From assembly GCA_963804265.1 (NCBI GenBank), contig CAWDPZ010000011.1:2242-66241 (forward strand): DNA of 64,000 nt. The letters run 5' to 3'. Both the position numbers and the translations under genes were made by a program. Shown here in pieces: positions 32,631-62,679 of the stretch. The stretch's first letter is position 1. Every line of letters starts with the position of its first letter. The notes under the pieces were generated by a model that was given only the letters and a program-made list of their open reading frames with translations, made no database searches and was not told the origin of the DNA. The stretch is from an uncultured Acidimicrobiaceae bacterium. GTDB taxonomy: Bacteria > Actinomycetota > Acidimicrobiia > Acidimicrobiales > Bog-793.

Positions 32631-34720
32631 GGTCGCGAACGGGAGCGTGCCACCGCCTGGGTCGCCCCGGCGTCGGCCACCTGCAGCCGGCGCAGCTCCC
32701 CGACCGGGATGTGGCAGCGCATCATGTGGTCGGGCTCGACCTCGACGAGGGGAGGCTCGGTCGACTCGCAGAGCCCGCTCGCGAGCCGCCGCGGGCAGCG
32801 CGTGTGGAAGACGCAGCCCGACGGCGAGTGTGCCGCGCTCGGGATCTCGCCCTTCAGCCGGATCCTCTCGCGGAGCGTCCCGTCGAGGCTCGGCACGGCC
32901 GAGAGCAGAGACTCGGTGTAGGGGTGATGCGGTCCGGCAAAGACCGTCTCGGCCGGTCCGTACTGCATGACGCGGCCCAGGTAGAGCACGGCGATGCGAT
33001 CGGACAGGTAGCGCACCACTCCGAGGTCGTGCGAGATGAAGACGTAGGTGACCCGCTCACGGCTCTGCAGGTCGGCGAGGAGGTTGAGGATGGCTGCCTG
33101 CACCGAGACGTCGAGGGCCGAGGTGGGCTCGTCGCAGACGAGCACGCGGGCGCCCCGGCGAACGCGCGTGCGATGGCGACTCGCTGCTTGAGTCCTCCCG
33201 AGAGCTGATAAGGGCGCAGCGGGAGATGGCGCTCCTCCATCCGAACCGAACGGATGACTTCCAGGAGGCGCCTCTCAGAGGCCTCGCCCGAGAGACCCGC
33301 CAGCTTCTTGAGCGCCCTCGTGACGATGTGCCGCACGCTGTGGCGCCTGTTCAACGCCGAGTCGGGGTTCTGGAAGACGATCTGCATCGCCTGCAGCTGC
33401 TAGCGGTCGCGCTTGGCGCACTGGGCGGCGAGCGGGACCCCCTCGAGCTCGATCACCGATCCCTCGTCCGGCACGGTGAGACCGAGCAGGACGCGGGCGA
33501 GCGTCGTCTTGCCGCAGCCCGATTCGCCCACCAGTCCGAGCGTCTCGCCCGCCTTCAGGTCGAGGTCGACCCCGACGACGGCCCGCACGTGCTCGCCGCG
33601 GACGTGGAAGGTCTTGGACACGCCGCGCAGGCGGATGACGGGCTCCTCGCTCGCGCCCGGGCTCCTCAGCTGGACCTCCTCCGGGGTCGCCCGGGGCAGT
33701 TCGGCCGCCCGGTCGTGGTAGTGGCACCGCGACGTCCGCGACGGGGAGACCTCGTACATGGGCGGAGTCTCTTCGACGGCAACGTTCGGTCGCGAGCGCG
33801 CAGCGCTTGGCGAAGACGCATCCGACGGGGACCTCCCCGGGTCCCGGGAGGAAGCCGGGAATCGTGTCGAGCCGCCCGTGGTCCTTGCGCTGCCCGCCGC
33901 GGGGGACGCATCGCAGCAGTCCGACGGTGTAGGGATGCCGGGGATTGTCGAAGATCTCACGTGCCGGGCCCTGTTCGACGAGCTCTCCCGCGTACATGAC
34001 GCCGACGCGGTCGCACATCTTCGCGATCACCGCCAGGTTGTGGCTGATGAACAGGACCGAGGTCTGGAACCTCTGACGAAGCGACGACACCAGGTCGAGC
34101 ACCTCGGCCTCGACGGTGGCGTCAAGGGCCGTCGTCGGCTCGTCGAGTATGAGCAGAGCGGGCTCCGAAGCGAGCGCCATGGCGATCATGACCCGCTGCA
34201 GCATCCCGCCCGAGAGCTGATGGGGATAGGCGTGCAGCACCCGTCCCGGATCCGCGATCTGCACCATGCGGAGCAGTTCCTCGGCCCTGGCCAGGGCATC
34301 AGCCCGCTTTGTGCCGGCCACCTCGTACACCTCGGCCACCTGGCGCCCGACTCGGATCGACGGGTTCAACGCCCGCCCCGGCTCCTGGTAGACCATCGAG
34401 ACGGTCCGCGCCCTGAATTTCCGCAGTTCGTCCTTGTTCATGGACGCCGGGTCCTTCCCGTTCACCGTCACCGAACCGGCGCTGAGGCGCCCGTTGCGGG
34501 GGAGATAGCGCGTGATGGCGAGGGCGGTCGTCGACTTGCCGCAGCCCGACTCGCCGACGAGGCCGAACGACTCCTGGCGGCCGATGGTGAACGAGACGTC
34601 GCGCAGGGCCAACCGGTCGTTGCCGCGCACGCGATATGTCACGTCGAGGTGGCTGACCTCCAGCGTCGGCGGGGTCGCTTCGACGGCGGAGACCAGGTCG
34701 GACGAGGTGGCAAGGGTCAT
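32627..34720 (-). CDS. Duplicated (two-NBD) peptide-type ABC transporter ATPase, two frame breaks (~33779, ~33149) and an in-frame TAG at 33400-33402
   Basis: Two Walker A motifs (GESGCGKST, GESGCGKTT), two signatures (LSGGMLQR, LSGGLKQR), two Walker B motifs (LILDEPT, LVCDEPT) and two oligopeptide-type C-terminal Cys motifs are spread over four listed ORFs. Confidence 0.75.
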
Positions 34721-35650
34721 TGGACGAGCACCGACTCGATCGCGTCACCGATGAGGTTGATGGCGATTATGAGCGACGCGATGGCAAGGGCGGGGAAGAG
34801 CGTCTCCCACCAGTAGCCCGCACCCAGGTACTGGTAGTTGTTGGCGATGTCCGCGCCCCAGTCCGGCGTCGGCAGCTGCACGCCGAAGCCGAGAAACGAA
34901 AGCGTCGCGATCGTGAAGATCGCGTACCCGAGGCGGACTGTGAACTCGACGATGATCGGGCCGAGCACGTTCGGGAGGATCTCCACGAACATGACGTGAA
35001 AGGCGCTCTCGTCACGAAGCCGGGCGGCGGCGAGATAGTCGAGCTCGCGCTCTTGCAGGACAGCCGCACGCACGGTCCTCGCGATGATGAGGGCGAAGAC
35101 GAAGCCGATCACCATGACGAGCGTGAGGGTGCTCGGGCCGACGGCGACGACGAAGAGGAAGGCCACGATGACGATGGGAAGGGACAGGGCGGCGTCCACG
35201 AGCCGGCCGACGATCATGTCGAAGACACCGCGCAGATAGCCCTGGGCGAGGCCGATCGTCGTGCCGACCACGGTGCCCGAGCAGCGTGGCGAGCGGGGCG
35301 ATCTCGAGGATGTCGCGGGAGCCGACGATCACCCGCGAGAGAATGTCCTCGCCGGCGTTGTTGGTACCGAACCAGTGGGCGGCCGAGGGGGCGAGATTGC
35401 CGCTCAAGATGTCCGGCGTGGTGGCGTTGAAGGGGACGAACGAGCCGCCGAAGATGGCGCAGACGATCCACCAGAGAAGGATCAACGTCCCGACGATGAA
35501 CGTCTTGGAGCGGAGGAGCTGGCGGAGCTGTTCCAGGCGAATCCGCCCCACCGAGACGTCCAGCGCCCCGGACGCTCCGACCGGCGAGGCCGCGGACAGC
35601 TGGTCTGCGAGACCAGCCGCGGGAGGACCGGCGGGCTCGACCGCCGTCAT
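34717..35650 (-). CDS. ABC transporter permease (DppC/OppC-like), frame broken near 35277
   Basis: The ATG at 35650 overlaps the corrected stop of the upstream permease (ATGA). Motifs are HWFGTNNAGEDILSRV and, in ORF 34717..35271, TVVGTTIGLAQGYLRG...LDYLAAARL. Confidence 0.75.
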
Positions 35651-36602
35651 TCCGCCGCCCCCAGCCTGACGCGGGGGTTCAACAGCGTGTAGAGGATGTC
35701 CGCGATCAGCGTCGCCACGACGTAGACGATGCCGATGAACAAGCACTCCCGCCTCGAGCATCGGGAAGTCCTTGTTGTTGGCGGCATTCAGGATGAGCGT
35801 GCCGACGCCCGGGTAGGTGAAGAGCCTCTCGACCACGACGAGGCCGCCGATCAGGTACCCGGTCTGGGTGGCGATGACGGTGATCGTCGGCAGCAGCGAG
35901 TTGCGCAGCACGTGCCGCCGGATCACGACCCAGCGGGGCAGCCCCTTCAGCGTCGCCGTGCGGACGTAGTCGGAGTCGAGCGCCTCGACGGTGCCGGCCC
36001 GGGCCATCCGGGCGATGTAGCCGTAGAGGATAATCACGAGGGGAATGGCGGGAAGGATCAGGTAGCGCACCTGGGTGATGAAGGTCGACCCCGCCGGCGC
36101 GTTGGCGGTGACGGGCAGCCACTTCAGGTCTATCGAGAACAGGACGATGAGGACGACGCCGGAGACGAACTCGGGCACCGTCGACAGTGAGAGGCTCGTC
36201 GTGCTGATGAGACGGTCCAGCCACCGTCCCCGGTTCAGGGCTGCGATGATCCCGCCCAGGATGGCCGTGGGCACGACGATGACAAAGGCAAGGGCCGCCA
36301 GCTTCAGCGATCTCCCCAGGTACGGCCACAAGAAGGAGCTGACCGGTGCCTGGTACTGGTATGAAGTCCCGAGCCTGCCCGCGCACGATCCCGGTGATCC
36401 AGCTCCAGTACTGCACGACGACTGGCCGGTCGACGCCGAGCCTGTGGTCGAGTATGTCCACCGAGTGCTGGGAGGCGAAAGGCCCGAGAATCGCCCGTCC
36501 CGGGTCGCCCGGGAGCACCTGGGCGGCGAAGAAGATGATCAGGCTCAAGAGCACGAGCGTCACCAACGCCAGGCCGACTCGCTTCACGACGTAAAGCAAC
36601 AT
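35647..36602 (-). CDS. ABC transporter permease (DppB/OppB-like), two frame breaks (~36371, ~35741)
   Basis: MLLYVVKRVGLALVTLVLLSLIIF...LPGDP is in the first frame. The core with the EAA-type loop (SDYVRTATLKGLP) is in ORF 35012..36331. The tail FIGIVYVVATLIADILYTLLNPRVR is in a third frame. Confidence 0.75.
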
Positions 36603-36859
36603 CCCGGGCTCCTCCTCCCTGAATCGTGTCCCGACGTCAGCCGACGTGGTGCCGAGACCGGAGGCTAATCAGACTCCGAAGCTAGCAGGGCGATCCCGCG
36701 TTTCGCCTGTCGAAGCGCGGTCTTGGGCGCGGACGCTACGACCGATAAGATGACAATTGCTATGTATATGGCCCGACTTCGTCACGTCGCCGGGCACAGC
36801 GCAGGTACCGAGCGGTTCGCGTCGCCACCGTCCAAGGCCAGATAGGCGGACGAGCGGAC
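36603..36859. promoter_or_regulatory. Divergent intergenic region between the ABC importer and the amidohydrolase operon, with an AT-rich core at 36744-36770
   Basis: A 257-nt non-coding gap contains GATAAGATGACAATTGCTATGTATATG, embedded in otherwise GC-rich sequence. I could not assign definite -35/-10 boxes. Confidence 0.3.
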
Positions 36860-38283
36860 ATGCCGGCGGTGGACCTCTCGATCGTCGGACGCATCGTTAC
36901 CGCGGCCGGTGAGCCGGACCGGGGCGAGGTCCTCGTCGGCGGCGGCCGCATCCTCGAGGTGAGAACAGGCCCACCGGCCGGGCGCCCCGGCGCGACACAC
37001 ATCGACGTAAAGGACGCCTACGTGTTCCCGGGCGCGATCGACTGCCACGTCCATTCCGGCAGCCATGCCGGGGAAGGCATCCGGGCGCTGACGGCCTCGG
37101 CGGCGGCCGGGGGCGTCACAACCGTGATCGACATGCCCTACGACGCCGCGGCCCCGGTGGTGAACCCCGAGGTGCTGGCTGCCAAGCGTCACAGAGTCGG
37201 CGAGGAGGCGCTCGTCGACGTAGCACTGCTCGGCACGGTCCGGCCCGGATCGGGCGGCAGCGACGTCGGGCCGCTCGCCGAGGCGGGCGTCGTCGGGTTC
37301 AAGCTGTCCTTGTTCGGGACAGATCCCCGGCGCTTCCCGCGCATCCCCGACGACCAATTCCTGGAGGTCCTCGCTGCCATCGGCGAGCACGGCAGCGTCG
37401 CCTGCGTCCATGCCGAGAACGAGGAGATCATCAAGCCTCTGCTCGAGCGGCTCCGGGCCTTCCCCGACGCCTCCCCGATCGACCACTGCCGGTCGCGCCC
37501 GCCGGTGAGCGAGACCCAGGCTGTGCTGACGGCACTCGAATACGCCAGAGACGCCAGGGCCCCCCTCCACCTGTGCCACCTCAGCCTCCCCCGTTCGGTC
37601 GACCTCGCCCGCTCATATGCGGAAGAGGGCCTGCAGGTGAGCACCGAGACCTGCCCGCACTATCTGAGCTTTTCCGAGGACGACATGGGGCGCGCCGGTG
37701 GCCGCCTCAAGATCAACCCGCCCCTGCGGGCGCCCGCCCAGGTGGCGGGCCTGTGGGAGCGGCTCGGAGCGGGCGCGATCGACGCCGTCGTCTCCGACCA
37801 CGCCCCATGGCCGTTGGCGGACAAGACGAAGCCTGCGATCTTCGACAACCACTCCGGTGCACCGGGCGTCGAGACGCTCGTCACGGTACTGGCGGGGGGG
37901 CTGCTCGACCGGGGCGAAAGCCTGTCTGCGCTCTCGCAGCTTCTTGGCGCCGGTCCGGCACGGATATTCGGGATCAGTCACGCAAAGGGATCTCTCGAAG
38001 CCGGCAAGGACGCCGACATCATGGTCTTTGACCCCTCGGCGCCTTTCCGGCTCGACGAGGTCCGGCCTGCATTCCAACGCGGGCTGGCAGCCTTATCACG
38101 GCTCGACGAGTCCGGCCTGCACTCGAACGCGGGCTGGAGCCCTTATCACGGATGGTGTTCCCGGGCAGGGTCGTTCTCACGATCTCGCGGGGCGAGGTGG
38201 TCTGGGACGGGTCCCGCCTCCGGGGATCGGCCGGGCGCGGCCGCGTCGTAGGGCGTCAGCCGGGTGCTTCAGAACGTGGCTGA
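36860..38283 (+). CDS. Cyclic amidohydrolase (allantoinase/hydantoinase/dihydroorotase superfamily), a candidate hydantoin-5-propionate hydrolase. It carries a 50/51-nt tandem duplication and a frame break near 38151.
   Basis: AIDCHVHSG, GFKLSL, VHAENEE and VSDHAPW metal-ligand motifs. The native tail (MVFPGRVVLTISRGEVVWDG...) is in another frame and ends at TGA 38281-38283. Confidence 0.75.
38049..38149. repeat. Imperfect tandem duplication (51 nt + 50 nt) inside the amidohydrolase gene
   Basis: Copy 1 (38049-38099) is GGCTCGACGAGGTCCGGCCTGCATTCCAACGCGGGCTGGCAGCCTTATCAC. Copy 2 (38100-38149) is GGCTCGACGAGTCCGGCCTGCACTCGAACGCGGGCTGGAGCCCTTATCAC. Confidence 0.9.
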
Positions 38284-39931
38284 TCCGGGCGTGCCGAGAG
38301 TCGTGACGGCCCAGCGCGGCAAGAAGCTGCGCTGCCGTGGCTGGCGCCAGGAAGGCCTCTTGAGGATGCTCGAGAACGTGCTCGAGGTGGGGGAGCGCCC
38401 CGAGGACCTCGTGGTCTACGCGGCCCGGGGCAAGGCGGCCCGGGACTGGGCCTCGTACACGGGGATCGTCGAGGCGCTGGGCAACCTCCGCGACGAGCAG
38501 ACCCTCATCGTGCAGTCCGGCAAGCCCATCGGCGTCTTCCCGACCTCGGCAGAGGCGCCGCTCGTCCTCATGGCCTGCGGGAACGTCGTGGGCCACTACG
38601 CCACCCCGGAGTACTTCGACGAGCTTTGCGACCGCGGCCTCATCATGTGGGGGGGTCTCACAGCCGGGGACTGGCAGTACATCGGCTTCCAGGGCGTTCT
38701 TCAGGGTGTCTACGAGCTCCTGCAGGCGGTCGGTCGGGAGCACTTCGGCGGGTCGCTCGCCGGGAGGTTCGTCCTCACCGCCGGTCTCGGCGGCATGGGA
38801 TCGGCGCAACCGCTCGCGATCGCGCTCGCGGGCGGGAGAGGGATCGTCGTCGAGGTCGACCCGGACAAGTGCGCCCGGTCCTTGCGGCGGGGTCACCTCT
38901 CCTCGGTGACCGCGGACCTCGACGAGGCACTGGCGGCTCTCGGTCGCGGGGGCGAAGGCAGCGTCGTCGGGCTCGTGGGCAACGCCGCGACCGTCTACGG
39001 CGAAGTCGCCGCCCGGGGCGTCGTGCCCGACATCGTGACCGACCTCACCGCCGCCCACGACGCCGTCTACGGCTACTGCCCGGTCGAGCTCTCGCTCGCG
39101 AGCTGGCGCACCCGTCGCGAGTCGGACCCGGCGGGCGTCGCCGCCATGGCCCGCCAATCCATGGCCCGGCAGGTGCAGGCCATGCTGGAGATGAAGGCGG
39201 CCGGCGCCGTCGTCTTCGAGGACGGCAACAACCTGCGGGTGCAGGCGGAGGCGGCCGGGGTCAAGGACGCCTTCACGATCGACGGGTTCGCCGAGCGTTA
39301 TCTGAGGCCGCTGTTCTGCCGCGGCATCGGCCCGTTCCGCTGGGTGGCGCTCAGCGGCGAGCTCTCGGACCTCGCCGAGCTCGACCGGCTCGTCCTGCAG
39401 ATGTCGTTCCGTCCCGAGGTGGACTCGTGGATCTCCCTCGCCGGGGAGAACGTGGTACCGCAGGGCTTGCCGGCCCGGAGCTGCTGGCTCGGTCATCTCG
39501 AGCGGTCCAGGTTCGCCGTGGCGGTGAACGCGCTCGTCTGCAACGGGCGGCTTTCCGGCCCGGTGGCCTTTACGAGGGACCACTTCGACTCCGGCGGCAT
39601 GACGCATCCTCACATCGGGACCGAGAACATGGCCGACGGGTCGGGTGCCATCTCGGACTGGCCGATCCTCGACGCCCTCCTGCTGTCCGCCTCGGGGGCC
39701 GACCTCGTGGCGGTCCACGCCGGCGGCGCCGGATACGCCGGCTACATGCAGTCGGCAGGCGTCACGATCGTGGCCGACGGCACCAGCTCGGCCGAGGAGC
39801 GACTCAGGCGTGGGCTCGACGCCGACAGCGGCCTCGGCGTCCTGCGCTACGCGGATGCCGGTTACAGCCAGGCGAAGTCCGCGGCCGGAGACGCCGGCCT
39901 CGGCCTCGGCCAAGAGGAGGAGACGCAATGA
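38264..39931 (+). CDS. Divergent urocanase-family hydratase (second paralogue), a candidate thiourocanate hydratase
   Basis: Full-length similarity to HutU (RCRGWRQEGLLRMLENVLE, GGMGSAQPLA, GPFRWVALSG) with altered conserved blocks (TDLTAAHDAV, TRDHFDSGGMTHPHIGTE, VHAGGAGYAGYM). The ORF is intact. Alternative GTG starts are at 38276, 38291 and 38303. Confidence 0.8.
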   Translation: MLQNVADPGVPRVVTAQRGKKLRCRGWRQEGLLRMLENVLEVGERPEDLVVYAARGKAARDWASYTGIVEALGNLRDEQTLIVQSGKPIGVFPTSAEAPLVLMACGNVVGHYATPEYFDELCDRGLIMWGGLTAGDWQYIGFQGVLQGVYELLQAVGREHFGGSLAGRFVLTAGLGGMGSAQPLAIALAGGRGIVVEVDPDKCARSLRRGHLSSVTADLDEALAALGRGGEGSVVGLVGNAATVYGEVAARGVVPDIVTDLTAAHDAVYGYCPVELSLASWRTRRESDPAGVAAMARQSMARQVQAMLEMKAAGAVVFEDGNNLRVQAEAAGVKDAFTIDGFAERYLRPLFCRGIGPFRWVALSGELSDLAELDRLVLQMSFRPEVDSWISLAGENVVPQGLPARSCWLGHLERSRFAVAVNALVCNGRLSGPVAFTRDHFDSGGMTHPHIGTENMADGSGAISDWPILDALLLSASGADLVAVHAGGAGYAGYMQSAGVTIVADGTSSAEERLRRGLDADSGLGVLRYADAGYSQAKSAAGDAGLGLGQEEETQ

Positions 39932-41013
39932 CGCGGGAGCTGACCATCGAGGACGCCCTCGACGCCGTGTGGGGCGGCTCGGTGCTCGCGAGCGGCGGGG
40001 GAGGCTGGGTCGATCACGGCATGATGATGGGCGAGCTGGCGACGAAGCTCGGGCGCCCTGTCCTCTCGCCCGTCGAGGCGCTCGACGACGACGACCTCGT
40101 CGTCACCGTCACCGCCATAGGCGCGCCGGCGGCGCCGAACAGGGAGATCCGCCCGCTCGACTACGTGCGGGCGCTCGAGCTCGTGGCCGATGAGCTCGAC
40201 AGGCCCGTGGTGGCCGTGATGACGGCGCAGAACGGCTCCTCGACGACCTTGAACGGCTGGATCCAGTCGGCGGTCCTCGGCGTGCTCGTGCTCGACGCGG
40301 CCGGCGACGTCCGGGCGCACCCGACCGGCAAGCTCGGCGCCATGGGACTTACGACCAGGCCCGGTTACGAGACGGTGCAAGCCGTCGCCGGGGGCAACCG
40401 CTCTCTCACGGGCGGCCTCGAGGTGGTCGTCCGCGGCCAGGTGATCGCGACCTCCGATGTGCTCCGCGACGTCTGCCAGCGCGCCGGCGGGTTCATCGCC
40501 GCCGCCCGGCACCCCGTCGAGGCCGCCTATGTCAAACAGCACGCCGCCCTCGGGGCGGTGGGGTACGCCCTTTCCCTCGGCTCGGCCATGCGGGCGGCGG
40601 CGGGCGCCGACGCGGTCATCGAGGCGGCGGTCGGGGCGACGGGCGGCCGTGTCGTCGCACGCGGACCCGTCCGGGAGGTGGAGCCGCTGCGGACCGCGGG
40701 CGGCTTCGACCACGGCGCCATCTCGGTCGACGGCCACGTCGTCCGCTACCTCAACGAGTACATGACGGTGGACGTCGACGGCGAGCGCATCTCCACCTAC
40801 CCGGACGTGATCGCCACGTTGTCGCTCGAGGACGGACGGCCCGTGTCGATCGCGGAGATGGCACCCGGACGCGAGATTGCGCTCTTTGTCGTCGACCGGT
40901 CCCAGCTTCCCCTTTCCTCGAGCACGCGCGATCGCTTCGCGCTCGAGGAGGTCGAACAGATCATGGGCGTCTCGCTCGTCGGCGACACCCGTGGCGAGGT
41001 GCGGCCGTCGTGA
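39928..41013 (+). CDS. DUF917-family protein (Pfam PF06032, hydantoinase-associated), a candidate thiohydantoin desulfurase
   Basis: The ATG at 39928 overlaps the upstream stop (ATGA). The protein (LTIEDALDAVWGGSVLASGGGGW...VTAIGAP...MTAQNGSSTT...DAAGDVRAHPTG) has the typical DUF917 layout. Only the last 361 codons of ORF 38626..41013 are genuine. Confidence 0.7.
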   Translation: MTRELTIEDALDAVWGGSVLASGGGGWVDHGMMMGELATKLGRPVLSPVEALDDDDLVVTVTAIGAPAAPNREIRPLDYVRALELVADELDRPVVAVMTAQNGSSTTLNGWIQSAVLGVLVLDAAGDVRAHPTGKLGAMGLTTRPGYETVQAVAGGNRSLTGGLEVVVRGQVIATSDVLRDVCQRAGGFIAAARHPVEAAYVKQHAALGAVGYALSLGSAMRAAAGADAVIEAAVGATGGRVVARGPVREVEPLRTAGGFDHGAISVDGHVVRYLNEYMTVDVDGERISTYPDVIATLSLEDGRPVSIAEMAPGREIALFVVDRSQLPLSSSTRDRFALEEVEQIMGVSLVGDTRGEVRPS

Positions 41014-42294
41014 GCGGGCCCGTCCAGCCGGACCTTGCCCGGCTCGCGGACGACCTCGAGGTGCTCTCGTCCTTCCGGGACCCGCAGGCCCCCGGCTGGA
41101 CGCGGCGCGTCTTCTCCAGCTCCGACCGGGCCGGACGCGAGTGGGTGGCGGCCAGGATGCAGGAGGCGGGCCTCAGCGTCAGGACGGACGCGGCCGCGAA
41201 CCTCATCGGCACCTTGCCCGGCACGGCCGGGGACCCGGGGGCGATCGTCACGGGCTCGCACACCGACACCGTGGACGGCGGCGGCCGCTTCGACGGCATC
41301 ATCGGGGTGCTCGGCGCCATCGAGATGGTCCGCTGCCTGCGCGAGACGGGAACCGAGCTCGCCCACGACCTGGTCGTCGTCGACTTCCTCGGCGAGGAGC
41401 CCAATGACTTCGGCTTGAGCTGCCTGGGCAGCCGGGCGATCGTGGGGGCGCTCGACGACGACCATCTCGCTCTCGTCGGTCCGGACGGGAGCACCCTCGC
41501 CGAGGCGATCGAGTCGGCCGGGGGCAGGCCTGCGGCATCGCGCAGGCGCGCTGGGGCGCCGACCTGCACTGTTATGTGGAGATGCACATCGAACAAGGTC
41601 CGGTGCTCGAGTCCGCTCGTGTCCCCATCGGCATCGTGTCGGGCGTCGCCGGCATCCACCGGTTGCTCGCGCACGTGGTCGGTCAGCCGGACCATGCCGG
41701 CACCACCCCGATGGAGCTCCGCCGGGACGCCCTTGCGGGCGCGGCCGAGGTGATCCTCGCGCGTCGAAGCGTCTCGCCGCCGGCGGCGTGGCGACGGTCG
41801 GCCGACTTGCCGTCCGACCCGGAGCCTTGAACGTCGTGCCCGCCGAGGCAGATCTGTGGGCCGAGGCGCGAAGCGCCGACGAGTCCTGGCTGAGCGAGTT
41901 CGGGCTCAAGCTGGCCGAGGAGCTCGAGGCCGTCGGCACCCGCCGGCAGCTGGGCACGTCTCTCAACTGGCTCTCGCGTCAGGCCCCGGTGCCTGTGACC
42001 GATTGGGTCGCGGCCGCGGTCGGCGAGGCGGCGGGACTGCAGGGACACGAAACGGTCAGCCTGCCGAGCGGCGCAGGGCACGACGCTTCCCACATGGCTC
42101 GCCTTGGTCCGATGGGCATGGTCTTCGTGCCCTCCCGGGCGGGCCGCAGCCATTGTCCGGAGGAGTGGACCGACGTCGAGGACATCGGCAAAGGCATCGC
42201 TGTACTTACAGGGACCGTTATAATCTGCGACAGGCGGGAGGGCCGCGCCACGGGCGGTGCATCGTGGGGAGGCGGTGCAACTGGCGGTGGATGA
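41010..42294 (+). CDS. M20-family N-carbamoyl-L-amino-acid / allantoate amidohydrolase, two frame breaks (~41535, ~41763)
   Basis: The GTG at 41010 overlaps the DUF917 stop (GTGA). Motifs TGSHTDTVDGGGRFDG, EMHIEQGPVLE, VGQPDHAGTTPM and LPSGAGHDASHM are spread over three frames. Confidence 0.75.
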
Positions 42295-43844
42295 GCGACT
42301 TGTCGAGCTGACTGGAGACGACCTGCAGGTCGAGGACGTCGTCGCAGTCGCCCGGGAGTGGGCGCGGGTGAACCTTTCGGATCAGGCGCTCCGTCGCATG
42401 CGCCGCGCCCGCGACGTGGTCGACGCCATCTTGGCAAGGGGCGAGACCGTCTACGGCCTCAACACGGGACTCGGCTCGTTCGCCCGTTTCAAGATCCCCG
42501 CAGAGCAGCTGGAGCAGTTCTCTTTTGACACCGTGGCTGACCTGACCTCCAGCTACGGGCGGCCTCTCCCGCGCGACGTGGTGCGGGCGATGATGGTCAC
42601 CCGGGCCAACGGCATGGCCAAAGCCGGCGTCGGCGTACGCTGCGAGCTGGCGCAACTGCTCGTGGACGTGCTCAACCGTGACGTCCACCCGGTGGTGAGA
42701 GAGGTGGGCTCGGTCGGGCAAGGCGACCTCTCCGAGATGTCCGACATCGGCAAGGTGCTCATCGGCATCGGCAACGCCGAAGTCGGTGGGGAGGTCATGA
42801 GCGGGAAGGCGGCCCTGGAGCGGGTGGGGCTGCGCCCGATCCAGCTCGCCCCGAAAGAGGCGCTCGCCCTCATCGGCGCCAACGGAGTGACCCTGGGCCG
42901 CGGCGCCCTCGTCCTGCACGACGTCGCCGATCTCGTCGACCTGCTGCAGGTGGCAGCCGCCTTGTCGCTGGAGGGCTTTGCCGGCAACCTCTCCATCATC
43001 CACCCGGGCACGAGCCTTCTCGGGCCTCAGCTCGGGCTTCCGCACGGCGGCCGAGCGGCTGCGCGAGGTGCTGGACGGCTCCTACCTCTGGGAGCCGGAT
43101 GCCGCCCGCAACCTGCAGGACCCGCTTTCTTTCCGCTGCGCCCCGAGAAGCCACGGTGCTCTGCACGACGCCCTCGGTTACGCGCGCCTCAGCCTCGAGG
43201 CCGAGCTCAACGCCGCCAACGACAATCCCCTCGTTCTCGTCGGCGAAGGCGTGATCGTCTCGGTCGGCAACTTCGACGTCGTCGGGCTCGGCATGGCCTT
43301 CGACCTGTTGCGCCTGGCGATCGCGAATGCGATCAAGGGCGCCAACGAACGTGTGCAGAAGCTGCTCTGGAACCACTTCAGCGGCCTTCCCAGCGCGCTC
43401 GCCTTCGCGCAGGGGCCGACGAACGGCCTGAAGCCGATGGGCCGGTGGTGCGCCGCCCTGGCCGCCGAGGCCCGCTCGCTCGGAAGGCCCGTGACGCTCG
43501 ACTACGGCGGGCAGGTGGCCGAAGGCGTCGAGGACGACGCGAGCATGGCGCCGCTCTCGGTGCGCCGCACCCACGAGCTCGTCTCCCTCGTCCACCGCAC
43601 GGTCGCGTACGAGCTCATCACAGCCGCTCAGGCGATCGACATGCGCGGTCGATGGCCGCTCGGGCGCGGGACCGCCGTCGCCTATCAGGCCGTACGCGAG
43701 TACGTGCCCATGCTCCACGACGTCCGCGGCTGGGACCCGGACATCGAGGGCCTGGTCGACGTCATCTCCCGAGGCGAGCTCGGCTCCCGTATCTCAGCCG
43801 AGATCGGCGGTCTCGGCAAGAGTCCCCATCTCGCGCTGTCCTGA
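42257..43844 (+). CDS. Histidine-ammonia-lyase-family lyase without the MIO-forming Ala-Ser-Gly (ergothionase candidate), frame broken near 43003
   Basis: HAL fold motifs are YGLNTGLG, NDNPLV, QDPLSFRC and GNFD. At the MIO position the sequence reads GSVGQGDLSEMS rather than GSVGASGDLAPL. The second half is in ORF 42978..43844. Alternative start: GTG at 42287. Confidence 0.8.
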
Positions 43845-43894: not shown

Positions 43895-45139
43895 TCACAG
43901 GTGCCCGATCCGGATGCCGCGCTCGGGCAGCCGGACATGGAATCCGAGCCACCCGATCACGAGGCCGGCGCCCAGCACCGCCTGGGAGATGGCGAAGGTG
44001 CCCCGCGCCCCGAAATGGCCGACGAGGGCGCCCGCCAGGAGCGGGCTCACCACTGTCGCAAGTGCCCAGACGAGGTTCAGGAGCCCCATCACGACACCGA
44101 GTCCCACACCGGCCCGGTTGGCCCCGGAAGCGCCGAGGGGATAGCCGACGGCCCAGAGGACCGAACGAATGGCAGAGGTGGCGCACAGCATCAACACGAC
44201 GCAGACCGGTGCGCTGCTGGCGGTGGCCGGCGAGACGACGAAGGCGAGGACGAGGCCGGCGCCGAGCACGGTCTTCAGCCGGACGGCGCGCATCCCGACG
44301 CGTTTGGTGGCCATGCTGCCGACGATGAAAAGCACGGCGGCGACCGAGAACGCCACCCCGATCGTGCCGTCCGACGCGCCCGATGCATGCAGCTCGAGCG
44401 GGGCCAGCAGCGTCACGAGAGCAGCGCTCGCGCCCGCGACGGCCACGGCGACACTCGCCCCGAGCACCCTCGGGTCACCGGAGGCGGAACGGATGCTGGC
44501 GAGAACGCCGATTGGCTCGAAGGAGCTGACACCTTCGAGATCGACGGCCGTCAACAGGAGCGTCACGACGGTCGTCAGGACGGCCGCGACGACGAGCGGG
44601 GCCGCGAGGCCGAAGTACTGGGCGAGGATTCCGGCGAAAGCCGGTCCGGCGATGCAGCCGAACCCGGAGGCCGTGATGGTTCCCGTCATCGTCGTCTCGT
44701 CGTCGCAGGCCCTTGTGAGCCAGGTCAGGGCCGATGTCCACACGATGCCGTAGCCGAGGCCGAAGACGAAACGGGTCATCGAGCAAGAACGCGAACGAGG
44801 GGGCGAACGCCTGGCCCAGGGTCGAGGCGACGAGGAGCCAGCCGGACCACAACGTCAGCACCCGGGCACCGAAACGATCGGAGAGGGCCCCCGCCGGCAG
44901 CGAGATGACGAGGGCCGCGACGCCGGTGGCGGCGAGGAGCTCTGCTACCTGCACGCTGCCGAGCTGGAACCGCTCCTGGTAGGCGGGCAGGAGCGGGGCG
45001 ATGGCGGACTGCAGGACCGAGCTCAAGAGCGCCAGCGCGTAGACGAGGAGACGCAGCCGGCCGACCCGGGGATCCCCGCCGGCCTCGCCCGCCGCCGCCG
45101 CCCTTCCGGGTCGGCCACGTTGTCAGGTGTCTCGATCAT
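43895..45139 (-). CDS. MFS transporter, two frame breaks (~45100, ~44781)
   Basis: About 12 predicted hydrophobic helices are spread over ORFs 44475..45026 and 43895..44779. The ATG at 45139 (MIETPDNVADP..) is in a third frame. There is an MFS loop-like motif LSDRFGAR. Confidence 0.7.
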
Positions 45140-45308
45140 CTGTCGTCTTCTCGTAATGTCCCAGCTCCATCTACCATCTAACGGACGCTGGACTCTTCCC
45201 ACTTCCAGTATTTTACGACAACTAAGGTCGCTACTAAACTGAATATTTGATGCCAGAACGATCGGTGTGGTCGATCGATAAAGGGGTCGGTCTCGCGAGC
45301 TGCGGGCC
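45140..45308. promoter_or_regulatory. AT-rich divergent promoter/operator region between the MFS and LysR genes
   Basis: This is locally the lowest GC in the window (..CAGTATTTTACGACAACTAAGGTCGCTACTAAACTGAATATTTGATGCC..). It contains T-N11-A-type half sites and lies between divergent genes. Confidence 0.4.
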
Positions 45309-46179
45309 TTGCTGGCGGTCGCCGACCTCGGCTCGTTTCGGCGGGCGGCCTCCGAGCTCGGCTACACCCAGTCTTCGATCTCGCATCAGGTCGCCGCTCT
45401 AGAACGCGCTCTCGGTACCGAACTGTTCACCCGACCGGGCGGACGGGGAGCGGTCAAGCTCACCGCTGCCGGCGCGGCCGCTTACCGACGGGCCGCGGCG
45501 CGCCCTCGGGGAGGTGGAGGCCATCGGCGCCGACGTCGAGTCGACCGCCCGGGGCGAGCGGACGCGTATCCGAGTCGGCGTCTCCCAGACCGCGGCCGCC
45601 GAGGTGATGCCGGCCGCCCTGCGCTCGTTTCGCGAGACCTACCCCGACGTCGAGGTGATCCTGAGCGAGATCGAGGAGATCCAGGCCATCATGAGCGGCC
45701 TCGGACGCGGGAGGCTGGACCTCGCCTTCGCCCTCAACCCCGAGCCCGACGAGCGTGTGGAGGCGATCCCGCTCCTCGAGGATCCGTGGGTGATCCTGAC
45801 CCGACGCGACAGCTCGCTGGGCGACGTCGAACATCCGAGCTTCGACCTCCTCGACGGGAGGCAGCTCGTCGCCTGGACGCGACGCTGGAGCAGCCAGCTC
45901 GAGCTGGAGGAAGCGTGGCGCCGGCGCGGAATCGCGCCGCGCATCGTCTATCGGACAGACGACAACCTCGCGTTGCAGCGCCTCGTGGCCGCCGGCCTCG
46001 GCCATGCCTGCATCGGGCGCATCGCGGCCCGGCGGGCGATCGACTCCTCGCTCACGTGGCTCGCGCCCCGCGAGCGCCTGACGACTCGCCAGATGGCGTT
46101 GTGCTACCCGCGGCACCGGGCCATCACGGGGCCCGTTTCTTCTCTGATCTCGGCGATCCGGGCCCACTCGGACGGCTGA
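45309..46179 (+). CDS. LysR-family transcriptional regulator, frame broken near 45495. The start is unresolved (probably another break near 45292).
   Basis: The HTH is LAVADLGSFRRAASELGYTQSSISHQVAALE. The substrate-binding domain is in ORF 45514..46179. In frame there is no start codon between the TAA at 45279 and the conserved LRALLAV. GTG 45265 and ATG 45250 lie in the neighbouring frame. Confidence 0.7.
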
Positions 46180-46298: not shown

Positions 46299-47743
46299 TC
46301 AGTCGCCGAGCTCGGCCCGCCGCCGCGCGACATAGTCCTCGAGCTCCTCGCGGATGGAGTCGTCGAGCGGAGGCTGCTCGTACTCGTCCAGTGCCTTCTC
46401 GTAGATCGCCTTCGCCCGGGCGGCAGCGTCGAGAGCGCCCTGGCGTGACCAGCGTTCGAAGTTCATGGAGGACGAGAGCAGGGGGCGGTAGAAGCACTCA
46501 CGGAACCGGTCCATCGTGTGGGCGGCGCCGAAGAAGTGGCCGCCGTGGCCGACCTCGAGGTGGGCGTCGAAGGCAAGTGCGGCCTCGTCGATCTCGAGGG
46601 GGGTGAACTCCACCCGCAGCATCCTCAGCAGCTCGAGGTCGATGATGAACTTCTCGTAGCTGCTGACGAGGCCGCCTTCCAGCCAGCCGGCCGAGTGCAT
46701 GACCCAGTTCGTGCCCGCCAGGAACGTCGGCAACAAGGTCATGAGGGCCTCGTAGGCGGCCTGGGCGTCGGGAGTCTGGCTCGAGGTGAGGCACCCGCCG
46801 GTTCGAAACGGCAGGCCGTAATGTCTGGCGAGCTGCCCGGTGCAAAGAGCCCGATGGCCGATTCGGGCGTCCCGAAGCACGGCGAGCCCGACTGCATGTC
46901 GATGTTGGAAAGGAACGACCCGAAGATGACGGGGCATCCGGGCCTGATGAGCTGGGCGAGGGCGATCCCCGACAGCGCCTCTGCCAACTGCTGGGCGAGG
47001 GCCGCCGGGATCGTCACCGGGGACATCGCCCCCATGAGCAGAAAGGGCGTCAGGACAACCGGCTGGTTGGCGAGGTTGTACTCGAACTGCGCGTCGAGCA
47101 TCCGGTCGTCCCAGCGCAAGGGTGAATTGCAGTTGATGAGCGAGATCGTCGCAGGTGTCTCCTCGATCGTCTCGCGACCGCCGAAGAGGATCTCGGTCAT
47201 CCTGATCGTGTCGAGGGCGTTCGGCCCGGAGACGACGCTGCCCATGTAGATCTTGTCGGTCAAGGTCTGCAGGGCGAAGATCATGTCGAGGTGCCGCGAG
47301 TCGAGCGGGGCGTCGTTCGGCTCGCAGATCACGCCGCCGGCCGAGTCGAGCTCGGGGAAGCTCTGGGCGAGCATGGAGAACCGACGGAAGTCGGACATCG
47401 TTGCGTCCCTGCGGACGTCGCCTTCCCTCACGAACGGCGGCCCGTACACGCCGCCGAAGACCATGTGGTCGCCGCCGATGTGAACCGTGTTCGTGGGATT
47501 GCGCGCCTGCACGTCGAATTCCCGCGGCGCCTTCGCGACTTGCTCGAGCACGAAGTCGGGGTCGAGCCAGACCGTCTGGTCGTCCACTTTCTGCCCCGCC
47601 CGTCGGAACAGCTCGATCGCCTCCGGCTTGACGAACTGGACCCCGATCTCCGACACGATGCGCCGCCAGCCGCGGTCGAGCACCTCGATCGCGTCGGGGG
47701 AAAGCAGCTCGTAACGGGCCATCTTGTTGACGAACATCGCCAC
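46299..47743 (-). CDS. MttB-superfamily (trimethylamine methyltransferase family) corrinoid-dependent methyltransferase, non-pyrrolysine type (MtgB-like), frame broken near 46858
   Basis: The N-terminus YELLSPDAIEVLDRGWRRIVSEIGV is followed by LINCNSPLRWD and FLLMGAMSPVT. The reading continues as ALCTGQLARHYGLPFRTGG...HSAGWLEGGLVSSYEKFIIDLELL in ORF 46299..46937. There is no in-frame TAG. The start is ambiguous (47743, 47737 or 47722). Confidence 0.85.
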
Positions 47744-47765
47744 CTCACTTCACGCGGTCCCCGCC

Positions 47766-47812
47766 TTGACGCTCTTGGCCGGGCATTTTAGACTCACATA
47801 GTAGAACTATGT
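47766..47812 (+). promoter_or_regulatory. Putative promoter (-35 TTGACG, 17-nt spacer, -10 TAGACT) followed by a perfect palindrome overlapping the IclR start codon
   Basis: TTGACG lies at 47766-47771 and TAGACT at 47789-47794. ACATAGT-aga-ACTATGT at 47796-47812 contains the ATG at 47809. This implies a leaderless or near-leaderless transcript. Confidence 0.4.
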
Positions 47813-48625
47813 CTCGCAAAATGGAACAGAGCCAGCAACAGAGCCAGCTGAGTGCCGTGGCCCGGCCGACCGGGTCACAAGCCATCGACCGCGCCGCGGG
47901 CCTTCTGTGCCTGGTCGTCGATGCCTCCGACCCCGTGACGTTCACCGAGCTCGCCAAATCGAGCGGTCTGGCAAAGAGCACAACTTCTCGCATCTTGTTG
48001 GCTCTCGAGCGCAACGGGCTCGTGCGACGCGAGCCCGGCGGAGCCTTCAGGCCCGGCGACGCCTTCGTGCGCTATGCGCTCAGGTCCAACACCGAGACGG
48101 ATCTCGCCCGGCCTCGCCCGCCCGTACCTCGAGAGACTCGGCGAGCTGACCAGAGAGACGATCAATCTGGGCGTCGTCCACGGCGCCATGGTGGAACAGA
48201 TCGCTCAGATCGACAGCCACTACGTCCTCGGCGGGACCAACTGGCTGGGCCGCTCGGAGCCCTTGCACTGCACGGCTCTCGGCAAGGTGCTCGTTGCCTT
48301 CGGTGCCGCCGAGCTGCCGCCCGGTCGGCTGCTGCGCCTGGCGCCGAAGACGGTCACCCGCCGGTCTGTCCTCGAGGCCGAGCTGGCCGAGGTCCGCCGC
48401 CGCGGGTACGCCCTGGCCGACGAGGAGCTGGAGCCCGGGCTCGTCGCCGTCGCGGCGCCCGTGCGAGGGGAAGGTCGTGCCGCCTCAGCCGCCGTTTCGG
48501 TCTCGGGGCCTTCCACGCGCCTCGGGCCGACCCGATTGACCGAAGTAGCCGCGCAGTGCATGGCCGCAGCCGACGCCCTGTCTGCCGCGCTCGGCCACCG
48601 ACCACAGAGGAAGGGTGCAGCGTGA
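47809..48625 (+). CDS. IclR-family transcriptional regulator, frame broken near 48100
   Basis: The HTH is FTELAKSSGLAKSTTSRILLALERNGLV. The effector domain (LARPYLERLGELTRETINLGVV...VSVSGP) is in ORF 48074..48625. Confidence 0.7.
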
Positions 48626-49287
48626 ACAAGGACGAGCTTCTCAAGCAGATGTACGACGACACTCTTGTCGGCAACGCACCGGCTGTGCTCGAGCTCACCA
48701 ATGCCGGGCTCGCGATGGGGCTCAACCCCGAGACGCTGCTCTTCGAGGCGCTCATTCCCTCTCTCGAAGAAGTGGGAGCCCGCTTCGAGCGGGGCGACTT
48801 CTTCGTACCGGAGATGCTCATCGCCGGGCGGGCGATGGCAGGGGCCCTCGAGGTGCTGAGGCCGCTCCTGGCCGAGACCGGGGTCGAGCCGGTCGGCACT
48901 TTCGTCATGGGTACGGTCAAGGGCGACGTGCACGACATCGGGAAGAACCTCGTGAACATCATGCTCGAGGGTGCCGGTTTCCACGTCATCGACCTCGGCG
49001 TGCAGGTGGCGCCGGAGAAGTTCATCGAGGCCGTCAAGGAGCACAAGCCCGACATCGTCGGCTTCTCCGCCTTTTTGACCACGACGATGCCGATGTTCAA
49101 GGCGAACATCAACGCCCTCGAGAAGGCGGGACTGCGCGACCAGGTGATCGTGATGGTCGGCGGAGCGCCGGTCACCCAGGAGTACGCCGACGCGGTGGGG
49201 GCGGACGGCTACGCTTCGGACGCGTCGGCGGCGGTGAGCCGGGCCAAGGACCTAATGGCCCGCAGGGGCGCCGTCGCCCCTTCCTAG
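48622..49287 (+). CDS. Cobalamin-binding corrinoid protein (MtgC/MttC-like)
   Basis: The GTG at 48622 overlaps the IclR stop (GTGA) and follows GAGGAAGGG. It has an N-terminal four-helix cap, the B12 motif GDVHDIGKN (DxHxxG), then SAFLTTT and GGAP. Confidence 0.85.
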   Translation: MNKDELLKQMYDDTLVGNAPAVLELTNAGLAMGLNPETLLFEALIPSLEEVGARFERGDFFVPEMLIAGRAMAGALEVLRPLLAETGVEPVGTFVMGTVKGDVHDIGKNLVNIMLEGAGFHVIDLGVQVAPEKFIEAVKEHKPDIVGFSAFLTTTMPMFKANINALEKAGLRDQVIVMVGGAPVTQEYADAVGADGYASDASAAVSRAKDLMARRGAVAPS

Positions 49288-49309
49288 CGGGCTACGGTCG
49301 AGACCAGCC

Positions 49310-50172
49310 ATGCACACGGTTCTGCGCTCCGCCTCCCGGCAAGTCGTGATCGGCGACGACCAACCCTTTTGCATCATCGGCGAGCGCATCAACCCCACCG
49401 GCCGCAAGATCTTCCAGGAGCAGTTGCGCGCCGGCGACCTGTCGCGCATCGAGATCGACGTGGCCCAGCAGGTTGCCGGAGGCGCCATGGTGCTCGACGT
49501 GAACATGGGAGTCCCCCTCGGGGACGAGGTGGCCCTCATGATCCAGGCCGTGAAGCTGATCCAGAGCATCACGGATCTGCCGCTTTGCATCGACTCGTCG
49601 GTCATCGAGGCGCTCGAGGCCGGGCTTTCGACCTACGACGGCAAGGCCCTCGTCAACTCGGTCACCGCAGAGGACGAGCGGCTGGAGGCGATCCTGCCCG
49701 CTCGTCAAGCGATACGGGGCGGCGGTCATCGCGCTCCCCAACGACGAGAACGAGATCCCCGAGCAGCCGGAGCGGCGTCTCGAGCTTGCCCGCAAGATCG
49801 TCGAGGTCGCGACGGGCACTTACGGCATCGCCGAGGAGGACATCGTGCTCGACCCCTTGGCGATGCCCATCGGCGCGGACACCACGCCTCGTCGTGAGGA
49901 CATTGGAGACGATCTCTCTCGTCCACGACGAGCTCGGCCTGAACATGACACTCGGTGCTTCGAACGTGTCGTTCGGGATGCCCGACCGTGAGACGATCGG
50001 GGCCTCGTTCCTCTCCATGGCGATGCGCTCGGGACTCACGAGCGCCATCATGGACGCCCGCTCGCCTCATCTCGTGCGGGCTGTCAAAGCCGCCGACCTC
50101 GTGCTCGACCGGGACCCGTGGGGGGCCTCCTGGATCGCCGCCCACCGGTCCAAGCAAGCGGCGGGCCAATGA
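49310..50172 (+). CDS. Pterin-binding methyltransferase (methyl-corrinoid:tetrahydrofolate methyltransferase, MtgA/MetH-pterin-domain-like), two frame breaks (~49700, ~49887)
   Basis: IGERINPTG, LDVNMG and IDSS are in the first frame. LVKRYGAAVIALPNDE...DPLAMPIG is in the second. GASNVSFGMPDR is in the third. Confidence 0.75.
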
Positions 50173-52085: not shown

Positions 52086-52737
52086 GCCGGGCGGCGCCGC
52101 CCCGCCGGTGGACGCGTCGGTCATCGCCTGCGGCGCGCTCGGGCCGTCGATCCGCCAGATAGCCGCCCGTCGCGGGTGGCCGGTCGAGCTGCACTGCCTG
52201 CCGCCCCTGTTGCACAACCGCCCCCGCGAGATCGCGCCGCGCGTCGAGCTGCTCGCCCGGCGACTTCTGTCGGCGGGCAGATCCGTGGTGCTCGCCTACG
52301 CCGACTGCGGTACCTACGGGGCCCTCGACGGGGTATGCGAACGACTCGGGATCCGCAGGCTCGCCGGACTGCACTGCTATGACGTGTTCGCGGGTGCCGA
52401 CAAGATGCGCGACCTGTTCGACGACGAGCCCGGGACCTATGTCCTCACCGACTTCCTCGTGCGCAGCTTCCGCCGGACCGTCCTGAGCGAGCTGGGCCTC
52501 GACCGGCACCCCGAGCTGTGGGGCGACTACTTCGGCAGCTACACCCGGGTCGTCTGGCTCGCCCAGGATCGCACCCCTGCCCTCGAGGAGGAGGCCAAGG
52601 CCGTGGCCGCCCTCTTCGACCTCCCCCTCACCATTGCCGACGCCGGCGTTGTCCGCCTCGAGGCCGCTCTGTCGGAGCTGCTCGGCCCGGGTCGCGCGAC
52701 CCGGCAGGCCAAGCGGGTGCCGGTCAGTCCCCTTTGA
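52048..52737 (+). CDS. DUF1638-domain protein (commonly linked to corrinoid methyltransferase systems)
   Basis: SVIACGALGPSIRQI...LLHNRPREI...YADCGTYGALD...LHCYDVF are typical DUF1638 blocks. An alternative GTG start at 52108 avoids overlap with the corrected activase end. Confidence 0.65.
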   Translation: MTALSTSCPSPSEPGGAAPPVDASVIACGALGPSIRQIAARRGWPVELHCLPPLLHNRPREIAPRVELLARRLLSAGRSVVLAYADCGTYGALDGVCERLGIRRLAGLHCYDVFAGADKMRDLFDDEPGTYVLTDFLVRSFRRTVLSELGLDRHPELWGDYFGSYTRVVWLAQDRTPALEEEAKAVAALFDLPLTIADAGVVRLEAALSELLGPGRATRQAKRVPVSPL

Positions 52738-62675: not shown

Positions 62676-62679
62676 CGCG

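Follow-up and report, generated by a model that had tools for sequence, protein, structure and literature searches.

Until now, the breakdown of ergothioneine has been linked to a small number of cultured Proteobacteria, Firmicutes and spirochaetes, and a 2026 survey found ergothionase to be restricted to few genera (PMC13405746). A passage in a bioRxiv preprint (10.1101/2025.07.28.667264) cites Beliaeva, Leisinger & Seebeck (ACS Chem Biol 2021) for the reconstitution of the five-step pathway in vitro. In the ergothionase of T. denticola, Lys384 binds the thiolate and is essential, while in lyases acting on sulfur-free histidine betaines this position is Asn or Gln (10.1101/2025.08.13.670108; 10.64898/2026.04.22.720169, both preprints). 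Lyases of the Swoo_3913/SO_3299 type are periplasmic partners of flavocytochrome reductases and serve respiration (10.1101/2025.08.13.670108; 10.64898/2026.04.22.720169). The locus considered here comprises five co-directional genes at 36860-43844 on the + strand of a 64,000-nt stretch of DNA from an uncultured Acidimicrobiaceae bacterium (the window; all coordinates are window positions). It is probably a single operon for the catabolism of ergothioneine, or of a very close 2-thioimidazole histidine betaine, in a mycothiol-using member of the Acidimicrobiaceae from peat or bog.

Gene order and its conservation

A preliminary description of the window had proposed that these genes match every step of ergothioneine degradation. 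The strand and the families that it named were borne out by open reading frames and Pfam: in order, the genes encode a cyclic amidohydrolase, a urocanase paralogue, a DUF917 protein, an M20 carbamoylase and a HAL-family lyase (Table 1). The start/stop coupling that it described holds at three of the junctions. The hydratase and DUF917 genes share an ATGA overlap (39928-39931) and the DUF917 and M20 genes a GTGA overlap (41010-41013), while the M20 gene, whose stop codon is 42292-42294, and the lyase gene have 38 nt in common with a lyase start at GTG 42257, or 20 nt with one at GTG 42275, the position equivalent to the start called in close relatives. The first junction is start-dependent, the amidohydrolase and hydratase genes overlapping by 20 nt only with a hydratase start at GTG 38264; with the alternative in-frame start, GTG 38291, the two genes would be separated by 7 nt. 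A consensus scan, which is weakly informative, found no + strand terminator within the five-gene block.

At least 15 loci of uncultured Acidimicrobiales metagenome-assembled genomes (MAGs) from bog and other environmental metagenomes carry the operon intact, with its genes in the same order. Because the same five genes recur in the same order in these independent loci, the arrangement is not due to chance. The flanks are conserved as well: in at least 15 loci, ABC transporter genes on the - strand precede the five + strand genes, which are followed by an MFS gene on the - strand and a LysR gene on the + strand. All of the closest proteins and loci belong to uncultured Acidimicrobiaceae/Acidimicrobiales MAGs, including isolates named SPRUCE, bog_808 and the MFD series, names which presumably refer to the SPRUCE peat experiment, Stordalen Mire and the Microflora Danica survey, respectively. 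More distant relatives are found in MAGs of Solirubrobacteraceae, Gaiellaceae and 'Actinomycetes', and in Dormibacteraeota the core order is kept apart from an inserted IclR gene. Clusters of this last group further include a second amidohydrolase and a pyridine-nucleotide disulfide oxidoreductase. A mycothiol conjugate amidase (Mca) encoded in the window agrees with the earlier description of the host as a mycothiol-using actinobacterium.

Assignment of the five products

A comparison of each product with characterised enzymes by profile and structure, as suggested in the preliminary description, was run on all five, and the best match in each case was the expected ergothioneine enzyme. Curated NCBIfam models exist for four of the five pathway steps, and each is the best hit of the matching window protein.

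The lyase matches PF00221 in both halves, indicating the HAL/PAL fold. In place of the 'SVGASGDL' of this family it reads 'SVG-QGDL', and the Ala-Ser-Gly tripeptide which forms the 4-methylideneimidazole-5-one (MIO) group, already reported as lacking from the window protein, is absent from it and from all 120 homologues aligned. Because MIO cannot form, the enzyme is not a histidine ammonia-lyase. It is also the sole HAL-family gene found by tblastn in the 64 kb, no hutH being present in the housekeeping hut set. The best PDB match is the T. denticola ergothionase 6s7j with 262 bits, followed by a HAL-type chain with 212, and the catalytic tyrosine (Tyr54 in T. denticola, Tyr66 in the window lyase) is kept in 120/120 homologues. 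The window and T. denticola clades have 26 conserved positions in common at which they differ from P. putida HAL, among them 'S-x-N' where HAL has 'N-G-T'. On the HutH model TIGR01225 the lyase reaches 364 bits, below the cut-off of 539; on HAL models with a cut-off of 524, the T. denticola ergothionase scores 365 and the window clade 369 bits. NCBIfam has no ergothionase model.

The residue at position 384 varies between clades. Lys is found in 39/40 members of the T. denticola clade and in the Burkholderia in-cluster lyase, and Arg in 40/40 sampled members of the window clade. Of the other in-cluster lyases, that of Deinococcus has Arg here and those of Dormibacteraeota have His; HAL has Val, and second, MIO-less paralogues outside the operon have Tyr. 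Every lyase clustered with a hydratase and a desulfurase thus has a cationic or ionisable residue (K, R or H) here, a pattern which fits a thiolate-bearing substrate, if not a strict requirement for Lys. Arg would keep the positive charge needed for the thiolate, and this is its predicted role in the window lyase. Further MIO-less HAL-family paralogues, reading 'SVGAS-DL', lie beside related clusters (L020 5441-6745, L022 4654-6048, L028 2509-4008 and L026 10321-11832) and show Tyr or His where ergothionase has Lys384. They point to an unexplored substrate diversity among what appear to be trimethylamine-lyase-like enzymes.

The urocanase paralogue scores 751 bits on the thiourocanate hydratase model NF058530 (equivalog cut-off 930), 682 on the model of the S-methyl form and 630 on hutU. 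The window's own hutU (14346-16061), which serves as an internal control, ranks the three in reverse, with 880 bits on hutU, 680 on the S-methyl form and 643 on thiourocanate hydratase. This reversal upholds the earlier view of the five genes as a specialised paralogous pathway distinct from the housekeeping one, and the canonical hutU-ftcD-hutI set reported elsewhere in the window is indeed there, with all three products above their curated cut-offs. The best PDB match of the paralogue is 7NED with 633 bits and 56% identity, urocanases reaching 538 or less. We take 7NED to be the structure from the reconstitution study; it scores 1007 bits on the thiourocanate hydratase model and so passes the cut-off. 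At 118 discriminating positions, 7NED departs from a residue common to two urocanases; the paralogue has the 7NED residue at 48 of these and the urocanase residue at 30, the 7NED-like matches clustering in 'MWGGLTAG.WQYIG', 'GMTHP' and 'GGAGYAGYMQSAG'. A text search of the literature on 7NED, S-methyl thiourocanate, ErtE and hydantoin-5-propionate found no relevant paper.

The link between DUF917 and desulfurization, which the preliminary description had based on a Pfam renaming, is borne out. In Pfam, PF06032 and PF20906 are now called 'S-Me-THD-like' (S-Me-THD_N and S-Me-THD_C, formerly DUF917), and the window protein has this two-domain architecture, with 76.7 bits on PF20906 and 56.0 on PF06032 (gathering cut-offs 27). 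Its top NCBIfam hit is the thiohydantoin desulfurase model NF058529 (curated equivalog cut-off 440) with 388 bits, the S-methyl variant reaching 269. On the same model the L007 orthologue scores 393, the Deinococcus protein 395 and the Burkholderia protein 603 bits, the last of these passing. The desulfurase gene adjoins a gene of the thiourocanate-hydratase type in the window and in all related loci. A PDB sequence search with the DUF917 protein returned nothing useful.

For the two hydrolases the curated models are those of ErtD (NF058538, cut-off 600 bits; NF058539, cut-off 650) and ErtE (NF058540, cut-off 520), the names given in NF058538 and NF058540 being those of the Burkholderia sp. 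HME13 enzymes. Once its frame is repaired, the amidohydrolase has its best hits on the ErtD models, with the allantoinase model at 320 bits lying 100 below ErtD. By eye, the repaired translation contains the motifs DCHVH, GFKLS, VHAEN, HLCHLS and SDHAP, which, by analogy with the superfamily, would supply the metal ligands of a cyclic amidohydrolase (HxH, carboxylated Lys, His, His and Asp). The M20 protein, with three 1-nt indels removed, scores 526.9 bits on the ErtE model and is above the cut-off; its L007 orthologue is borderline at 519.7. Taken together, the ErtD and ErtE models beat those of allantoinase and allantoate hydrolase by about 100-135 bits.

Homology and gene context suggest how the products would act. 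The MIO-less lyase would remove trimethylamine from ergothioneine to give thiourocanate, Tyr66 taking the beta-proton and Arg standing at the Lys384 thiolate site; trimethylammonium would be a good enough leaving group to make MIO dispensable. The urocanase paralogue would hydrate thiourocanate to 3-(5-oxo-2-thioxoimidazolidin-4-yl)propionate, from which the DUF917 protein would remove sulfur as H2S, yielding hydantoin-5-propionate. The cyclic amidohydrolase would then open the ring to form N-carbamoyl-L-glutamate, and the M20 hydrolase would release glutamate, CO2 and NH3. The adjacent MFS transporter is the probable importer of the substrate, and the LysR protein the probable regulator of the operon.

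Several observations weigh against this assignment. The repaired amidohydrolase stays below both ErtD cut-offs (420 bits on NF058538 and 415 on NF058539, against 600 and 650), the hydratase candidate falls short of its equivalog cut-off (751 against 930 bits) and so does the DUF917 protein (388 against 440). By sequence alignment, Arg occupies the Lys384 position in the window lyase and in 118/120 homologues, and the lyase is 32% identical both to the T. denticola ergothionase and to P. putida HAL. Identity to the Burkholderia counterparts is limited to 35% for ErtD, 55% for the hydratase, 45% for the desulfurase, 46% for ErtE and 32% for the lyase. The proposed match to every step stands in that each best match is a pathway enzyme, but it needs qualifying. 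Because three of the four cut-offs (ErtD, hydratase and desulfurase) are not reached and Arg is found for Lys384, the products are to be classed as predicted divergent relatives and not as equivalogs. The scores below cut-off reflect divergence of the clade rather than damage to the genes, since intact L007 orthologues score alike (742 bits for the hydratase on NF058530, for instance).

Frame breaks and alternative readings

Only the hydratase and DUF917 genes are uninterrupted. Two short-read metagenome contigs, L001 and L002, which are about 98% identical to the window and carry intact genes, served as the reference for calling indels. Relative to these, the M20 gene has lost one nucleotide at 41534 and gained one each at 41763 and 41771, and the lyase gene has 1-nt insertions at 43033, 43816, 43820 and 43841, the last three of which rewrite the final ~9 residues. 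The amidohydrolase gene contains an imperfect 51/50-nt tandem duplication, with copies at 38049-38099 and 38100-38149 which differ by four substitutions and one extra base, and lacks one base after 'TATCACGG', near 38151. According to TRF, the repeat at 38041-38151 is the only one of its score in the whole window. The amidohydrolase orthologues of L004 and L007 are intact (456-457 aa) and have a single copy where the window has the duplication, reading '...LDE..LHSNAGWSPYHGM(A/V)FPGRV...'.

The preliminary description had called for repair of the frame breaks before expression of the genes. The breaks are not specific to the cluster, single-base indels being spread throughout the window. Between 41 and 54 kb, coding sequences have at least 17 single-base indels relative to L001 (97-98% identical), or about 1.3 per kb. 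Breaks in unrelated genes are found, for example, at 6125, 8580, 22978, 26581, 32647-36622, 44781, 46848, 48107, 49696, 49886, 51511 and 51965. A frame model based on G+C content at third codon positions (GC3) hops between frames inside many unrelated genes across the whole window, tblastn matches to the ABC transporter, MFS, MttB, IclR, methyltransferase, RACo and Amt genes are split into pieces, and the mycothiol amidase gene gives a full-length match only after repair near 6125. Long-read-style MAG contigs of relatives (L003, L009 and L025) are similarly fragmented. Substitutions relative to L002, by contrast with the indels, fall at third codon positions in 26 of 29 cases, and are 22 synonymous to 1 non-synonymous in the lyase gene and 13 to 3 in the DUF917 gene. 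The synonymous excess in these two genes shows purifying selection. Because indels hit many unrelated genes, contigs of ~98% identity are intact and substitutions are almost all synonymous, the breaks are most likely consensus errors of an indel-prone (long-read-type) assembly and not signs of pathway decay. The 51-nt duplication is the sole lesion that could be real, and may be either an assembly stutter or a true duplication.

These observations bear on a further reading, in which the locus is an ergothioneine operon by descent which is decaying into pseudogenes in this genome, with three of the five genes truly frameshifted and the pathway non-functional here. There are seven frame-disrupting lesions in the three genes, including the imperfect duplication that is unique in the window, and the indels lie outside long homopolymers. 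An imperfect duplication of 51 nt is moreover atypical of a single-base consensus error, and the M20 gene has 8 non-synonymous to 3 synonymous differences from L002, albeit in small numbers; these two points weigh against the main reading. Yet the same 1-nt type of indel is found in the ABC transporter, MFS, MttB, IclR, methyltransferase, RACo, Amt and Mca genes, and decay across the genome at ~1.3 lesions per kb would not be expected to leave substitutions confined to third positions, as in the lyase, or a sharp GC3 frame signal. Relatives at 98% identity, meanwhile, are intact. Decay of the operon in this genome thus seems unlikely.

It is also conceivable that the same reaction types act on a related substrate such as S-methyl-ergothioneine, selenoneine or another 2-substituted histidine betaine. 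This would accommodate the scores below the cut-offs of the ergothioneine pathway, the close second place of the S-methyl thiourocanate hydratase model (682 against 751 bits) and the Arg in place of the thiolate-binding Lys384, and lyases without MIO that are linked to such clusters form several distinct clades, with K, R, H or Y at 384, which suggests substrate diversity. The desulfurase, however, clearly prefers the thiohydantoin over the S-methyl model (388 against 269 bits), ErtE passes its cut-off, Arg retains the positive charge needed for a thiolate, and the closest structure to the hydratase, 7NED, is a proven member of the thiourocanate hydratase family. A different substrate is on balance quite improbable. 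A more elaborate proposal takes the Arg-type lyase and the sub-threshold hydratase and desulfurase as a distinct variant of the pathway for another 2-chalcogen histidine betaine (selenoneine or S-methyl-ergothioneine), perhaps coupled in the sub-lineage of the window to the adjacent corrinoid-dependent methyltransferase module of the MtgB type, which would harvest N-methyl groups of the betaine into tetrahydrofolate; this is a speculation that is probably wrong by a wide measure.

Finally, an ordinary Hut, sulfur-free histidine-betaine, allantoin or hydantoin utilisation cluster can hardly be credited: housekeeping relatives exist for all five families, homologues are publicly annotated as 'histidine ammonia-lyase', 'DUF917 family protein' or 'hypothetical protein', and the Burkholderia and Deinococcus counterparts as 'urocanate hydratase', 'Zn-dependent hydrolase' or 'amidohydrolase family protein', but the lyase lacks the means to form MIO, a canonical hut set is already present in the window, a route without sulfur has no use for a gene of the desulfurase family, sulfur-free betaine lyases carry Asn/Gln and not Arg at 384 (10.1101/2025.08.13.670108), and the ErtD and ErtE models lead those of allantoin breakdown by the margin given above. 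The catabolism of ergothioneine, or of a very close thio-analogue, is the preferred reading in what follows.

Genomic surroundings and comparison with described systems

The genes that flank the operon were first described as an MFS transporter, a LysR protein and an MttB module, all of which lie downstream of it. The remaining features of interest are listed with the operon in Table 1.

Table 1. Positions of the operon genes and of other features in the window
Feature	Position	Strand	Basis and remarks
Cyclic amidohydrolase, candidate hydantoin-5-propionate amidohydrolase (ErtD-like)	36860-38283	+	Pfam Amidohydro_1; broken near 3' end
Urocanase paralogue, candidate NAD-dependent thiourocanate hydratase	38264-39931	+	Three urocanase Pfam domains; intact, 555 aa
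DUF917 / S-Me-THD-like protein, candidate thiohydantoin desulfurase	39928-41013	+	Pfam PF06032, PF20906; intact, 361 aa
M20 carbamoylase, candidate N-carbamoyl-L-glutamate amidohydrolase (ErtE)	41010-42294	+	Pfam Peptidase_M20/M28; three frames
HAL-family lyase without MIO, candidate ergothioneine trimethylamine-lyase (ergothionase-like)	42257-43844	+	Pfam Lyase_aromatic; frame-broken
Imperfect tandem duplication in amidohydrolase gene	38041-38151	+	TRF: period 50, 2.2 copies, 89% match
Mycothiol conjugate amidase (Mca)	5887-6793		Above curated cut-off
Canonical hutU-ftcD-hutI set	14346-18761		All three pass curated cut-offs
Opp/Dpp-type ABC transporter: two permeases and fused double ATPase	32647-36622	-	tblastn against L004, eight frame pieces; Pfam
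Intergenic region, candidate promoter/operator	36623-36859	.	12-locus alignment; conserved blocks 36656-36689, 36740-36789
MFS transporter, candidate substrate importer	43895-45102	-	Pfam MFS_1 in intact L001, L004 orthologues; tblastn, two pieces
LysR-family regulator	45250-46179	+	HTH_1 and LysR_substrate; tblastn 45250-46176; divergent from MFS
MttB-family methyltransferase	46299-47743	-	No internal stop, hence no pyrrolysine codon
Corrinoid methyltransferase module	46299-53458	- (MttB, GATase)	MttB-family, IclR, MtgC-like corrinoid protein, methyl-THF:corrinoid methyltransferase, RACo, DUF1638, GATase

The ABC transporter genes are divergent from the operon and hold the same position in at least 14 loci, a distant version (36-39%) taking their place in L018. 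They have no adjacent binding-protein gene, and it is positional conservation that would tie them to the pathway. A long - strand frame at 24277-26028, ~7 kb from the ABC genes, has by eye the look of a family-5 solute-binding protein. The MFS gene, although frame-broken in the window, adjoins the lyase gene in most Acidimicrobiales loci.

Two intergenic regions contain non-coding blocks that are conserved over 11-12 species-level loci and are AT-rich amid a G+C content of 68-72%. The blocks upstream of the operon include an AT-rich near-palindrome, ATGACAATTGCTAT, and a consensus scan of 36623-36859, which is weakly informative, found no sigma-70 consensus. Upstream of LysR the conserved block spans 45151-45249, and its dyad-containing part (45210-45249) abuts the ATG, with the dyad ACGAC-N7-GTCGC directly upstream of the start. 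The blocks at 36656-36689, 36740-36789 and 45151-45249 are candidate regulatory sites. Rfam identified no RNA family in the whole window.

The MttB gene was correctly noted as a neighbour of the operon, but it is of the glycine-betaine, non-pyrrolysine type, and of about 20 related loci just four have it there (the window, L001, L010 and L021). Its product matches the PDB entries 4yyc (439 bits) and MtgB 2qne (379 bits), against 128 bits for a true trimethylamine MttB. The idea that it might consume the trimethylamine released by the lyase was rejected, as the gene has no pyrrolysine codon and groups with the glycine-betaine methyltransferases. It also comes with a separate IclR regulator and is missing from the majority of related loci. 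It is treated here as a putative neighbouring module for quaternary amines and not as a part of the pathway. Other related loci retain just RACo and GATase, a remnant which suggests partial loss of the corrinoid module. Among the papers listed by a literature search on ergothioneine and MttB, none mentions ergothioneine.

Further downstream, the region 57294-64000 encodes an ammonium transporter on the - strand and a choline dehydrogenase, BetA, above its cut-off, as well as genes which by eye resemble those for ETF alpha/beta (-). A GcvT-like C-terminal part of a dimethylglycine/sarcosine-type dehydrogenase runs off the end of the window. The whole neighbourhood looks like a quaternary-amine utilisation island. 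At the other end, 1-2031 has a lower G+C content (63%) and no coherent frame, the best frame having 17 stops; 1086-2031 is called non-coding, and there is no Rfam match.

The pathway itself is already known and curated, and its chemistry is unchanged by these findings. What is added is a divergent clade in uncultured hosts; its single-operon order and Arg-type lyase set it apart from the Burkholderia reference. The paper on the reconstituted pathway reportedly stressed Firmicutes and Proteobacteria; a complete candidate pathway is now seen in abundant uncultured lineages of soil and peat, the Acidimicrobiaceae and also Solirubrobacteraceae, Gaiellaceae and Dormibacteraeota. If it is active, ergothioneine of fungal and actinobacterial origin would be a source of carbon, nitrogen and sulfur in peat, and a local source of trimethylamine and H2S there, and a whole clade would have been missed by the curated models. 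The change from Lys to Arg would, in an active lyase, offer a simple test of the requirement for the thiolate-binding residue.

The described system most like that of the window is on plasmid CP110394 of Burkholderia sp. JSH-S8 (L030), where the same five families are found in one locus with LysR and MFS genes and imply the same sequence of reactions. The suggestion that such partners had not been described was thus overstated, although the MFS and LysR proteins of the two loci are not detectably orthologous. The four Burkholderia proteins that can be tested pass all curated cut-offs (hydratase 1043, desulfurase 603 and ErtD 695 bits). The gene order is different. In Burkholderia there are two divergent units (ErtE<-ErtD and LysR->DUF917->hydratase->MFS->lyase), whereas the window has one operon in the order ErtD-hydratase-DUF917-ErtE-lyase. 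The lyases differ too, that of Burkholderia having Lys at 384 and, by eye, an N-terminus like a signal peptide, while that of the window has Arg and no such N-terminus.

Comparison with the individual enzymes reveals a similar mixture of shared and divergent features. As in the reconstituted pathway, there is one enzyme family per step, and the window hydratase shares discriminating active-site motifs with 7NED but stays below the equivalog cut-off. The T. denticola ergothionase 6s7j has the HAL fold without MIO, the same one-residue deletion ('G-EGD', compared with 'G-QGD' in the window) and Tyr54 as in the window; it differs in its essential Lys384, which is Arg in the window clade, and the two enzymes are 32% identical. 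Swoo_3913 and SO_3299, which are trimethylammonia-lyases for histidine-betaine and N(pi)-methyl-histidine-betaine, are MIO-less, HAL-family enzymes that release trimethylamine, like the candidate lyase of the window. These betaine lyases have a neutral Asn/Gln at 384, whereas the window lyase has Arg and its partners are a hydratase, a desulfurase and hydrolases. Enzymes of the S-methyl-ergothioneine type (NF058531 and NF058532) belong to the same urocanase-like and DUF917 families and give the second-best scores in the window, 682 against 751 and 269 against 388 bits. In the canonical Hut pathway (hutH, hutU, hutI and ftcD) the first two steps are homologous, a lyase being followed by an NAD-dependent hydratase. 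The later steps depart, Hut proceeding through HutI and FtcD while the cluster in the window, with its MIO-less lyase, has a candidate desulfurase, hydantoinase and carbamoylase.

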